From contig JAPLUW010000002.1 of assembly GCA_026397405.1 (NCBI GenBank), positions 1 through 38,213 of the forward strand: a stretch of 38,213 bases of DNA, in the 5' to 3' direction. This document shows positions 5,583 to 31,744 of this stretch, one piece after another (the first letter of the stretch is position 1; every line of letters starts with the position of its first letter). The notes beneath the pieces were generated by a model that was not told the DNA's origin, ran no database searches, and was given only the letters and a program-made list of their open reading frames with translations. The DNA is from Candidatus Adlerbacteria bacterium (GTDB lineage: Bacteria; Patescibacteriota; Minisyncoccia; Phycocordibacterales; SBAW01). The position numbers and the translations under genes were made by a program.

Positions 5583-6146
5583 ATGGGTTTTTTCAGTAGA
5601 TGCCATAAGAGCAGTCTCCTGCGGGAGCTGCAAACGCGGGGGACAATGTGTCTCCCAAAGAGATACAGGCAACCGACTCGTACTGCTTGCAAATACTGGA
5701 TCTGCAATGGCCTGGGGATTTTCTTTAGCCTTCTACTGGCTGAGAAGCTTATCCATGCGGGTGTTCATTACAGACTTGCGATGGTTGGGGGCGCTTTTGC
5801 GCAAGCTGTGATCGCGACCCCACTCAACGCGGCGTGGACCTTTAAATCAGAACTGGGTCTGTCGCTCAGCCCCAAGATGGTTCTGAGGGGTGCAGTTGTG
5901 GATCTTGCTGGGTGGGCGGGGGCAGAAGTAATTGTGTCGGTGGAAATCGACATTCTCGCCAGCGCATGGAACCTGGAGTGGCTGGGAGATTTCTTGGTCG
6001 CACGAGGGATCTCAGTTGTACTCATGGGCTACCCTCTGTACTTGTTTGATCTTTGGTACACGTTTAAGAGGCCGCTGAAGGACCTCCCACCGGTCGCCCT
6101 GGCCCGCCGCGTGTACGCCAAACTCCGCTCGACACTTGTTCTATAA
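5583..6146 (+). CDS. GtrA-like small membrane protein (divergent)
   Basis: Four hydrophobic segments; KY..CNG.G, LNAAWTFK and LWYTFK repeats typical of GtrA; SD AAGGAG. Confidence 0.55.
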   Translation: MGFFSRCHKSSLLRELQTRGTMCLPKRYRQPTRTACKYWICNGLGIFFSLLLAEKLIHAGVHYRLAMVGGAFAQAVIATPLNAAWTFKSELGLSLSPKMVLRGAVVDLAGWAGAEVIVSVEIDILASAWNLEWLGDFLVARGISVVLMGYPLYLFDLWYTFKRPLKDLPPVALARRVYAKLRSTLVL

Positions 6147-6222: not shown

Positions 6223-6753
6223 CTATGTTGTTGCTGAATCGGCCTTCTCCGAAGGTTCGAATCGGCGATCTTTGAACAAGAGTCCACTACCGATGATATA
6301 TCCTTGAGGATTGGTGGTAGTCGAGTTCCAAACGCAATCCCACGTACCTGCAAGTGTTGGCTTGCCGGTCGGATAGATGAAATGGATGAAGTACCGATGA
6401 CCGTCGATCCAGAGTGAAGAACGACGTTGTCCGTGAGCTTGCCAGTCGCGCTCTCCAAATTTCTCCAGAAAAAAACCTTTGACTCTAACAGACACAAGGT
6501 CTGAGGTCTGGCCGACAAGGAGGGTTTTCATCTCCATCTCAACCTCCATCAACTGCCGAGCCATTCCGTTTTTTCCCTCTGGAAGCAATCGGTAGGAGAT
6601 CTTAAGATCCTTCGGTTGCGACTGCGCTTCAGTGATGACTTGAAGCGCAAGCGAAACGAGCCGCTGTGCTTCGAGTACACCACTGTTTTGATGGTAGGTG
6701 CCGTTTTTAAACAGGTTGTCGAGGAACTCCCCGGCAAGGCTTCGAATAGTCAT
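6223..6753 (-). CDS. Hypothetical protein (ORFan-like)
   Basis: 176-aa ORF with SD-like GAAAGGG, promoter TTGATT-17-TAGTCT (6836-6808) and its own terminator. Confidence 0.7.
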   Translation of the reverse strand: MTIRSLAGEFLDNLFKNGTYHQNSGVLEAQRLVSLALQVITEAQSQPKDLKISYRLLPEGKNGMARQLMEVEMEMKTLLVGQTSDLVSVRVKGFFLEKFGERDWQAHGQRRSSLWIDGHRYFIHFIYPTGKPTLAGTWDCVWNSTTTNPQGYIIGSGLLFKDRRFEPSEKADSATT

Positions 6754-6851
6754 CTGTAGCCCTTTCGAGAAAAGCTGCTTTAGGAGGGCAGCGGAACCTC
6801 TGCCGCAAGACTACGTTTTTAAGTAGAAGAAATCAACAGGTTTAAATTCAG

Positions 6852-7146
6852 CTCCGCGACCAGGACTCGAACCTGGAACCAACTCCTTACACGTGACCCC
6901 AAACTTACGTAAGGGCGTGGACTATATCATCACCCGTTCTGGGTGCGAGGCGCTTCGTCCCGAACTTCGGGACTACTTCCATTTGGAATAGTCTCTGAAC
7001 CTTTCCCCAGAGTGGGGACTTGGCTGCTGATTGCCCTTCTTAATTTAAGAATAGGGTTTCCAGACAATTCACCTCGTTTGCAACCCACATTCCTGTGGGA
7101 GGCTGCCTATCGACAGGGAGCTGCTCTACCATTGAGCTATCGCGGA
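6852..7146 (-). tRNA. trnN: tRNA-Asn(GUU), intron-containing: exons 7146-7113 and 6889-6852
   Basis: Joined exons give TCCGCGA TA GCTC AATGGTA GAGC A GCTCC CT GT|T AA GGAGT TGGTT CCAGG TTCGAGT CCTGG TCGCGGA G: a full cloverleaf with anticodon GTT and discriminator G; CCA not fully encoded. Confidence 0.95.
6890..7112 (-). ncRNA. Group I self-splicing intron (223 nt, no ORF, IA-like) at anticodon position 35/36
   Basis: P1 CUGU|C-GAUA-GGCAG with U-G at the 5' splice site; P AATTGTCTGGAAA, Q AATCAGCAG, R TCAGAGACTA, S GATATAGTCC; P3 GAGGTG/CGCCTC; P7.1 and P7.2 hairpins; terminal omega-G at 6890. Confidence 0.93.
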
Positions 7147-7229
7147 ATAATGGCCAAAATTGACCTGAAAAAAGTATACGGTATCTTGTCTCTATCAGCA
7201 AACATAACACCTGGTGTTATAATGGGAGA

Positions 7230-7574
7230 ATGATACTCAAGAGTTGTAAAAAACATAAAGAGACAAAACATTTTCCACGACCAGACGGCTCTTTTAGATG
7301 TGGCAAATGTGCTTCTGAATGGGTAATTAAAAACCGAAGAAAAAAGAAAGAAAAACTCGTCGAACTTTTTGGTGGAAAGTGCTCAGTGTGTGGGTATAAA
7401 AAATACGCAGGAGCGCTTGATTTCCATCATATAAACCCAAAGAACAAAGAGTTTGCTTTAAGCGTGAAAGGTCTTTCATATAGCTGGGAAAGTTTAGTAC
7501 AGGAGGCAAAAAAATGTGTTCTGGTATGTAAAAATTGTCATACAGAAATTGAGGCAGGATTAACAACTCTGTAG
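7230..7574 (+). CDS. Free-standing zinc-binding HNH-family endonuclease
   Basis: CxxH/CxxC N-terminal finger, GGKCSVCGY, ALDFHH, CVLVCKNCH; AT-rich; TGTTATAAT 6 nt before ATG. Confidence 0.85.
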   Translation: MILKSCKKHKETKHFPRPDGSFRCGKCASEWVIKNRRKKKEKLVELFGGKCSVCGYKKYAGALDFHHINPKNKEFALSVKGLSYSWESLVQEAKKCVLVCKNCHTEIEAGLTTL

Positions 7575-8278: not shown

Positions 8279-9151
8279 TCATGCGCACATTCTGTTTTTT
8301 ACTTCGCTCAATACCCACGCTATAGTTGCAGTTTTTTCACGTGTGCTTATGGTAAAGATGATAGGCGGCATTTTGTCTTGCCCCCACGGTACCTGGTCGC
8401 CGTTTGCGCACCGGGCAACTCCGCCTAACTCCCGTATCAACACGTAACTGGCGGCAATGTCCCACTCGTACGGTTCGAAAATACTTGTCCAGCCCCACGC
8501 AGGGCCGCGAGCTACTTCAAAACCTGCCACAACACACGGCAAGCTCAGCGTGTCTTCAAAACACATAGTTAACTCGACCGCTTGTGCCGTGTACATTTTG
8601 TTACTCAACACCGACTTCGATGTCGGCACAATCAACATTGGGTTAATCGCAGACAAACGTTCAAATATCTGCCACGGTCCATATGTTGTGCGGAACCTAG
8701 CGCCTTTGCCTTCAATTGCAACAACAAATTCTCCGCGCCCGGGTTGCAAGATAATCCCTACGCGCGGCACGCCGTCAATAACGAGTGCAACCGAAACACA
8801 CCACTCATACCGTCTCGCCTCATAGAAACGCGTTGCGTCTATCGGGTCTATTGTCCAGTAGATCCGGGACCTCGGTTCATGGGTCAGGTCTTCCTCGCCA
8901 CGGACCTGTATATGTGGCGCGACACTTTTCAGAAAATTGGTTACAAAAACTTGTGCAGTTTTGTCTACGTTCGACACGGGTGTCCCGTCTTTCTTACGCG
9001 CACGTATCACTTTTGACTGTAGGGCAGTAAAGCCCACACCCATCTCAAGTAATTGGTCGACAATTGGCAAAAAAGTTTCGAAATCCAACCTGAGTCCGCT
9101 GCAGACGCGAGTCTCGCCTTTGCCCGTAGTATCCCGCTCACTAACACTCAT
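8279..9151 (-). CDS. Inositol monophosphatase/CysQ-like (FIG superfamily) phosphatase
   Basis: KKDGTPVS.VD, GEE, WTIDPIDAT and WDIAA motifs; SD-like AAGGGGG. Confidence 0.88.
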   Translation of the reverse strand: MSVSERDTTGKGETRVCSGLRLDFETFLPIVDQLLEMGVGFTALQSKVIRARKKDGTPVSNVDKTAQVFVTNFLKSVAPHIQVRGEEDLTHEPRSRIYWTIDPIDATRFYEARRYEWCVSVALVIDGVPRVGIILQPGRGEFVVAIEGKGARFRTTYGPWQIFERLSAINPMLIVPTSKSVLSNKMYTAQAVELTMCFEDTLSLPCVVAGFEVARGPAWGWTSIFEPYEWDIAASYVLIRELGGVARCANGDQVPWGQDKMPPIIFTISTREKTATIAWVLSEVKNRMCA

Positions 9152-31672: not shown

Positions 31673-31744
31673 GGCCCTATCGTCTAACGGTTAGGACGGA
31701 AGCTTCTCAAGCTTTAAATCGGGGTTCGATTCCCCGTAGGGTCA
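31673..31744 (+). tRNA. trnE: tRNA-Glu(CUC)
   Basis: GGCCCTA...GAAGC TT CTC AA GCTTT...CGGGG TTCGATT CCCCG TAGGGTC A; anticodon 31706-31708; CCA not encoded. Confidence 0.95.

Follow-up and report, generated by a model that had tools for sequence, protein, structure and literature searches.

This analysis concerns a window of 38,213 nucleotides (positions 1 to 38,213 of contig JAPLUW010000002.1, assembly GCA_026397405.1) from Candidatus Adlerbacteria bacterium, a tiny freshwater member of the Patescibacteriota, and within it a tRNA-Asn(GUU) gene whose anticodon is interrupted by an intron. I propose, with a probability of roughly 0.88, that this is the only tRNA-Asn(GUU) gene of the genome, that the insert is a 223-nt IA2-like group I ribozyme lying between U35 and U36, that the decoding of asparagine codons depends on its splicing, and that an HNH gene has been lost from it. 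The element is real, and as a group I intron it is very probably functional.

A tRNA-Asn gene interrupted at 35/36

The gene runs from 7146 to 6852 on the minus strand of the window, as an exon of 34 nt, an intron of 223 nt and an exon of 38 nt. A preliminary description of this DNA, made from the sequence alone, had the coordinates 6852-7146 and the intron length right and left the strand unstated. The 5' exon supplies the acceptor, the D arm and the 5' strand of the anticodon stem, and ends in C32 U33 G34 U35, with U35 at 7113. The 3' exon begins with U36-A37-A38 and continues through the 3' strand of the anticodon stem, a 5-nt variable loop, the T arm and the acceptor to G73; direct reading of the gene finds no encoded CCA at its 3' end. 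When the exons are joined in silico, ARAGORN reads a tRNA-Asn(gtt) of 73 nt with a regular cloverleaf and a 7-nt anticodon loop, just as the two halves had been said to form.

The insert had also been called a group I intron, and the covariance models agree. A scan of the whole window for RNA families gives a match to Rfam Intron_gpI (RF00028) at 6898-7172(-). Its score is 84.6 bits (E 2.6e-20), far from anything that chance would give; the gathering score is 50. The match spans model positions 1-253 of 253, the full length of the model. The sole other RNA family match in the window is a tRNA-Glu at 31673-31744.

Where exactly is the gene cut? The exon bases pair with the guide of the intron as C32-G, U33-A, G34-C and U35.G. 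The wobble at U35 is present in 32 of 32 homologues, and the three neighbouring exon pairs are invariant. Genes without the intron show what the empty site looks like: eight intronless genes were retrieved from the order, seven of them tRNA-Asn(gtt) whose anticodon loop reads CTGT joined to TAA (the eighth is cut by a contig end), and in several intronless genomes of the order the BLAST pieces for query positions 1-34 and 258-285 abut. There is also the rule that a group I intron is preceded by U and ends in G. When 28 loci of the order were screened for junctions that obey this rule and give a tRNA, 26 could be resolved, and in 10 of these (L007, L008, L011, L014, L016, L021, L025, L027, L028 and L029) 35/36 is the only such junction. 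G stands directly before the 3' exon in all 56 resolved interrupted genes. The in-silico splice, the order-wide junction test and the intronless orthologues thus agree on a junction at 35/36 that restores GUU, as first described. A junction one base off, giving Asp(gtc), was rejected because it breaks the group I rule, its intron following a C and ending in U.

The assembly comprises 637,775 bp in 2 contigs and is 91.4% complete. ARAGORN finds 39 tRNAs and one tmRNA in it, the Rfam tRNA model (RF00005) finds the same 39, and neither finds another tRNA-Asn in the assembled 91.4%. Both the model and ARAGORN in its default mode miss the split gene, so the expectation that standard scanners would pass it over, leaving a genome that appears to have no tRNA-Asn, is borne out. 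With the intron search of ARAGORN the tRNA-Asn gene is the only split tRNA of the genome. The interrupted tRNA-Asn recurs in the two congeneric genomes, each 99% complete, where BLAST gives no match to exon 1 and no full-length match to exon 2 elsewhere; in genome G073 a different contig has one extra match of 31 nt, covering part of exon 2.

How would such a tRNA be charged? The pair U1-A72 and the discriminator G73 serve GatCAB and AspRS as identity elements, and it is the difference between U1-A72 and G1-C72 that GatCAB is known to read. All 29 Asn-type rows of the alignment described in the next section carry U1-A72 in the acceptor, and all three Asp-type rows carry G1-C72. The genome has a single synthetase of the Asp/Asn type, which scores 453.9 bits with NF003483 (cut-off 353) and is an aspartate-tRNA(Asn) ligase, that is, a non-discriminating AspRS. 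Asparaginyl-tRNA synthetase (AsnRS) was not found by the genome profile search, in which the asnS models reach 243-264 bits, below their cut-offs; gatB stands above its own, at 448.9 bits. Since a non-discriminating AspRS and GatB are present and AsnRS falls below cut-off, Asn-tRNA is probably made by the indirect route, in which the spliced tRNA would be charged with Asp and then amidated to Asn. With one tRNA-Asn gene and no AsnRS above cut-off, all Asn decoding would therefore depend on splicing of the intron. The preliminary description had supposed this dependence, and it holds on the strength of the single gene copy and the transamidation route.

Fold and subgroup of the intron

The structure was drawn by hand on the window copy, with helices P1, P2, P3, P4, P5, P6/P6a, P7, P7.1, P7.2, P8 and P9, and was projected onto a MAFFT alignment (A2) of 32 interrupted genes with short introns (203-311 nt), of which 29 are Asn, the window gene among them, and 3 are Asp. 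BLAST with the window sequence contributed 21 of the rows and an exact 14-mer of the S element the other 11. All drawn pairs are standard pairs in the window copy. In the alignment, 94.7% of 2467 cells pair, as against 35.7-45.7% when the partners are slid by 1-3 columns. Changes on both sides are seen in 52 of the 80 pairs, and the covariation score is 0.469 versus 0.148 for shuffled alignments, a value that 0 of 500 shuffles reached. Covariation of the helices, unlike the invariance of the core, is not a product of the way the rows were selected.

Not every helix contributes to this in the same way (Table 1). The four exon pairs of P1 are invariant (32/32), whereas the pair made by the first intron base covaries (GC 13, CG 10, AU 7). 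P7 and J8/7 never vary, so they offer conservation and no covariation. P9 pairs in only 71% of cells because the ungapped register of MAFFT is poor there. J6/7 tracks P4, being UCA with C-G/U-A in 19 rows and GUA with G-C/G-C in nine of nine. Such tracking is what base triples between J6/7 and P4 would predict, and it gives a hint of them, only a hint because those rows may be one clade. Every hallmark listed beforehand has a place in the fold: P1 with U35.G, the R and S elements, the P3/P7 pseudoknot, the two hairpins between P7 and P3', and the terminal G.

From this fold I propose the following course of splicing. The gene would be transcribed as a precursor with the 223-nt ribozyme between U35 and U36. 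In it the guide GGCAG pairs with C32-U35 and the first intron base to give a P1 of 5 bp, whose U35.G wobble marks the 5' splice site, and the core, including the guanosine site of P7, is there and conserved. If the intron works like the group I introns already studied, P7 would bind a free guanosine, which would attack after U35; the terminal G would then occupy the same site, and the 3'-OH of U35 would attack after it, joining U35 to U36, restoring the GUU anticodon loop and releasing the intron. By eye, the alignment shows no conserved P10, in which the 3' exon would pair near the guide; the anticodon stem of the exons is probably what keeps the splice sites close to each other. The tRNA would then be completed by RNase P, by the addition of CCA and by modification of its bases.

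The 38 nt between the 5' strand of P7 and P3' make two covarying hairpins, P7.1 and P7.2. As far as the cited texts go, hairpins of this kind linked by G-U-A have been used to assign introns to subgroup IA2 (PMC3428280), and P2, P7.1 and P7.2 count among the class-defining elements (PMC3984707). A script flagged the linker in 31 rows, of which L110 is doubtful; L040 has none. The earlier assignment to an IA-like subgroup was made from P7.1 and P7.2 and is upheld by their double changes (3/4 and 6/6 pairs) and by the link in 30 of 32 rows. The sequences support the sharper designation IA2-like.

IA2 introns of phages and Bacillota, such as those of T4 td, Twort, the DNA polymerase of cyanophage Pf-WMP3 and nrdF of B. 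cereus, share with the window intron the G-U-A-linked P7.1 and P7.2 (PMC3428280, PMC2248736), the type of R and S elements and an association with HNH endonucleases. Phage introns, that in the split psbA of S-PM2 among them, share 70-75% identity with the core of the window intron over 120-160 nt. In those accounts, though, the hosts code for proteins and the open reading frame (ORF) usually lies in P6a or another downstream loop, whereas here the host is a tRNA, and the ORF-bearing relatives have their ORF in the P1 loop, reading through guide and P2.

The classical bacterial tRNA introns (Azoarcus tRNA-Ile, tRNA-Leu(UAA) of Anabaena and other cyanobacteria, tRNA-fMet, Agrobacterium tRNA-Arg) are described as IC3 (PMC3984707, PMC8450103). 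The likeness to them is considerable: a small ribozyme (about 200-250 nt) with no ORF, set in the anticodon loop of a gene that escapes tRNA scanners, with a short P1 made of anticodon-loop bases ending in U and with GNRA loops at L2 and L9. IC3 introns, however, have no P7.1 or P7.2, their P7 joining P3' almost directly, and the classical tRNA introns insert at 34/35 or 36/37. The window intron has P7.1-GUA-P7.2, site 35/36 and a family of hosts that are tRNA-Asn or tRNA-Asp. It shares with IC3 the location in the anticodon loop (U35/U36) and not the absence of P7.1 and P7.2, and because IC3 tRNA introns lack these hairpins, it is a different type of ribozyme in the same kind of host.

Group I introns in rRNA genes of the candidate phyla radiation (CPR), or Patescibacteria, reflect the same phylum-wide tendency towards structural RNA hosts, the host there being rRNA and here tRNA (PMC11270868, PMC11809585). 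Inserts in CPR rRNA genes are reported often to carry LAGLIDADG rather than HNH genes (PMC8172020). The present genome has a second group I intron of its own, in a 23S rRNA gene (G000:C1:165321-165520, minus strand, RF00028 62 bits), just upstream of the sarcin-ricin-loop sequence.

Table 1. Coordinates of the interrupted gene, of the elements of its intron and of related genes. Positions are those of the window unless another record is named; "double changes" are pairs changed on both sides in the alignment A2.
Feature	Position	Strand	Remarks
tRNA-Asn 5' exon	7146..7113	-	34 nt, tRNA positions 1-35, position 17 absent; read directly
Group I intron, IA2-like	7112..6890	-	223 nt, no ORF; RF00028 and covariation (32 homologues)
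tRNA-Asn 3' exon	6889..6852	-	38 nt, U36 to discriminator G73 (6852)
P1	7116..7103	-	exon C32-U35 (7116..7113) and intron nt 1 (7112) with guide GGCAG (7107..7103); 5 bp, loop GAUA
P2 hairpin, GGAA (GNRA-type) loop	7084..7099	-	double changes 6/6 pairs; L2 GNRA in 29/32
P3 5' strand	7070..7076	-	P3 double changes 4/7 pairs
P3 3' strand	6946..6952	-	same covariation analysis
P4-P5-P6 domain (P4, P5/P5a, P6/P6a)	6999..7066	-	double changes P4b 3/4, P5 2/3, P6a 5/5
P7 5' strand (R element), bulged A	6989..6995	-	pairs conserved in 31-32/32; Rfam alignment
P7.1 hairpin	6977..6988	-	double changes 3/4 pairs
G-U-A linker, P7.1 to P7.2	6976..6974	-	clear in 30/32 homologues
P7.2 hairpin	6957..6973	-	double changes 6/6 pairs
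P8, short in window copy	6932..6944	-	double changes 3/4 pairs
J8/7 and P7 3' strand (S element)	6919..6931	-	identical in 32/32, partly by selection (11/32 rows found by motif)
P9 hairpin, GUAA loop	6897..6915	-	double changes 4/5 pairs, 71% of cells pair; L9 centre GNAA
Terminal guanosine (omega-G), 3' splice site	6890	-	G in 56/56 resolved genes
Intact HNH-type ORFs of long introns	L019:1727-2077(-), L027:1060-1392(+), L029, L105, L011		P1 loop
Truncated HNH-type ORFs of long introns	L020, L028, L068		P1 loop
Non-discriminating aspartate-tRNA(Asn) ligase	G000:C2:60340-61686 (L178:41-1387)	-	NF003483
GatB	G000:C1:111963-113315		profile match

The surroundings of the gene can be dealt with briefly. 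A promoter and terminator scan of 6650-7350 found neither on the minus strand; by eye only, TATACT at 7178..7173 is a candidate -10 box. The ORFs around the gene, at 6226-6753(-), 7230-7571(+) and 5583-6143(+), have no NCBIfam match at E<=1e-5, and 8282-9151(-) encodes a protein of the inositol-monophosphatase/CysQ family, with scores below cut-offs.

Distribution and mobility of the intron

The intron is not peculiar to one genus. A search of 200 other genomes of the order, from which 30 loci were listed (29 of them from other genomes), gives as a lower bound at least 27 further genes interrupted at 35/36, 25 Asn and 2 Asp, in 27 of those genomes. Of the 30 listed loci, 28 hold a split tRNA, the window's included, and in all 28 exon 1 ends in CUGU and the intron in G. 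The gene stands uninterrupted in many further genomes of the order. With the intron alone as query (E<=1e-6), 15 of 400 other genomes drawn evenly from the phylum matched, all labelled as outside the class of the window, and they yielded 15 interrupted genes at 35/36, all Asn. A global scan for the 14-mer of the S element returns many chance matches and says nothing of the distribution outside Patescibacteria; among the 120 matches listed there are about 20 real intron cores and 13 genes interrupted at 35/36 (12 Asn, 1 Asp). The records of these 13 are labelled Paceibacterota, Parcubacteria, Nomura-, Portnoy- and Staskawiczbacteria, "Patescibacteria group" and "Saccharibacteria". The total comes to at least 56 copies, the window gene and 55 further ones, 53 in tRNA-Asn and 3 in tRNA-Asp, all at 35/36. 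Judged by these sequences, the lineage is widespread in Patescibacteria, not rare.

The three tRNA-Asp(GUC) hosts (L009, on G035:C10; L016, on G117:C23; and L110) are interrupted at the same 35/36 site, and their acceptors have G1-C72. What the guide pairs with is C-U-G-U, a stretch common to the anticodon loops of Asn and Asp. Elsewhere, a related group I intron of 222-223 nt lies in tRNA-Phe(GAA), at L138:66-361 (a Taylorbacteria record) and L036:469-763; its site is 33/34, after U33, and its guide differs, according to the P1 reading of L138. The same 14-mer occurs in a group I core of a 23S rRNA gene (L063, uncultured bacterium) and in one whose context is not tRNA-like (L078, from a record labelled as a Romboutsia metagenome-assembled genome, MAG).

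Some copies are much longer than that of the window. Introns of 509-625 nt account for 7 of 28 genes at the level of the order and 8 of 15 at that of the phylum, and in all eight long introns examined the extra DNA is in the P1 loop. In seven of the eight the guide lies at intron position 326-336, downstream of the start of an ORF. Five have this ORF intact (102-116 aa) and three have it truncated (51-79 aa). All five intact products match the Pfam HNH domain (PF01844) at E<=0.01, three of them above the gathering score, and in four of the five the last codons ("...GITQLP") run through the guide into P2. The window copy has a P1 loop of 4 nt and no ORF, hence no homing endonuclease. It is best read, from these comparisons, as a fixed, immobile, endonuclease-free descendant of a mobile intron.

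Strains close to that of the window also turn up in environmental data. Near-identical DNA to 6800-7200 occurs in freshwater and lake metagenome runs of several studies. In one freshwater DNA run, a near-identical strain has 5 differing positions and one deletion, all in L5/distal P5a, L7.1 and L7.2, a comparison that is weak because it comes from one contig at depth 4.2. The strain of run X8 has the gene and its intron but departs from the window sequence in the flanks, beyond 6850 on one side and 7187 on the other.

Is the element new? The preliminary description cautioned that the class may not be. A 2025 preprint by Nakagawa et al. reportedly describes, to go by its title, a novel group I insertion site in tRNA genes of Patescibacteria. 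The caution fits that title, and the site of the preprint may be 35/36. The kind of element, a group I intron within a tRNA gene, would be the same as here, and so would the phylum, going by the names of the MAGs that bear homologues. A literature search that covered the preprint by title only found no account of group I introns that lie at 35/36 or interrupt the tRNA-Asn of a bacterium. I conclude that the lineage of the window intron almost certainly overlaps the subject of the preprint and is probably already described.

Rival readings and significance

Several facts weigh against the proposal. Invariance of the intron core was partly selected, because rows were found by similarity or by a 14-mer of that very core. 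The window copy has an unusually short P8 and an L7.1 that is not GNRA, and autocatalysis without protein help is something I infer from the fold. A junction at 33/34 also fits the rule of U before and G at the end in the window copy. A second tRNA-Asn could lie in unassembled DNA, as the assembly is 91% complete and in 2 contigs. Neither ARAGORN nor RF00005 finds a tRNA-Trp(CCA) in it, and ARAGORN -i finds no further split tRNA; the tRNA-Trp gene is either in unassembled DNA or too odd to detect. Spliced RNA was not seen in public RNA runs, none of which matches more than 1/10 of the sampled words, and the freshwater metatranscriptomes X21 and X22 have no contig matching the locus. A soil metatranscriptome contig of 245 nt (X15) is the unspliced form, exon 1 plus intron, of a relative. 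An apparent joint in the soil-metatranscriptome data was rejected as a splice: 103 nt are replaced by 101 other letters, which marks a divergent relative.

What else could account for the gene? The intron might be removed in vivo only with protein help, from an RNA chaperone, a synthetase-type cofactor or a maturase, and so not be truly autocatalytic. The very short P8 and non-GNRA L7.1 of the window copy would fit this, as would the lack of a conserved P10 on inspection of the alignment and the dependence on host factors that PMC3984707 notes for many group I introns. Yet the core is complete and strongly covarying, L2 and L9 offer GNRA loops for tertiary contacts, and the 223 nt contain no ORF. 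Compact phage and tRNA introns of about this size typically self-splice in vitro. I regard a need for protein as unlikely. Far less credible is a dead tRNA-Asn with a decaying intron, its work done by another gene in the unassembled part of the genome. The completeness of 91.4%, the 2 contigs and the missing tRNA-Trp leave room for such a gene, but the exons form an intact cloverleaf, all helices pair in the window copy, and the arrangement is preserved in the two congeneric genomes, 99% complete, with no exon-1 or full-length exon-2 match elsewhere. That the near-identical strain varies only in L5/distal P5a, L7.1 and L7.2 speaks, weakly, the same way.

Slighter still is the chance that splicing occurs two bases upstream, at the U...G pair of 33/34, to give the anticodon UGU of Thr. 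This is the output of ARAGORN -i, which was run as a check on the gene and mislabels it Thr(tgt) i(33,223), and the 33/34 junction obeys the rule in the window copy. The other evidence, however, excludes it. U33 forms a Watson-Crick pair with A in P1, and the wobble is U35.G in 32 of 32 homologues; 35/36 is the sole rule-obeying junction in 10 of the 26 resolved loci of the order; the intronless orthologues carry GUU; U1-A72 and G73 match Asn; and the genome already has a tRNA-Thr(UGU).

A self-splicing intron at 35/36 of a working, single tRNA-Asn gene is thus the reading I prefer, and it invites a bolder one, improbable when all its parts are taken jointly. A single IA2-type lineage may have spread across Patescibacteria, with an HNH gene in the P1 loop that reads through the guide of the ribozyme itself. 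Its target would be the C-U-G-U of G-U-N tRNA anticodon loops, of which Asn and Asp are seen and His and Tyr are possible. The intron would then sit at the one base that separates the tRNAs for Asp and Asn, in genomes whose only way to Asn-tRNA is a non-discriminating AspRS with GatCAB. Splicing, with its need for guanosine and Mg2+, could be a checkpoint through which the supply of Asn-tRNA has to pass, and homing with co-conversion of exons could make tRNA-Asp and tRNA-Asn genes exchange identity.

The preferred reading has consequences for annotation. The intron search of ARAGORN misplaces the intron (window 6851-7146, loci L003-L032, L163-L177), and the Asn genes come out as Thr(tgt), Tyr(gta), His(gtg), Asp or "Stop(tta)". 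According to PMC8450103, tRNAscan-SE is not designed for such introns. Small Patescibacteria genomes seem to have no tRNA-Asn because default finders miss or misname the gene.

To specialists the element will be no surprise, since it is frequent in the phylum and probably already described. Its 223-nt IA2-type ribozyme is a compact object for structural work. The copies, at least 56, with and without HNH and in Asn and Asp hosts, make up a covariation set and a series that runs from gain through decay of the endonuclease to fixation. In the window genome, an essential single-copy tRNA, the only route to Asn-tRNA where no AsnRS stands above cut-off, would depend on a ribozyme.

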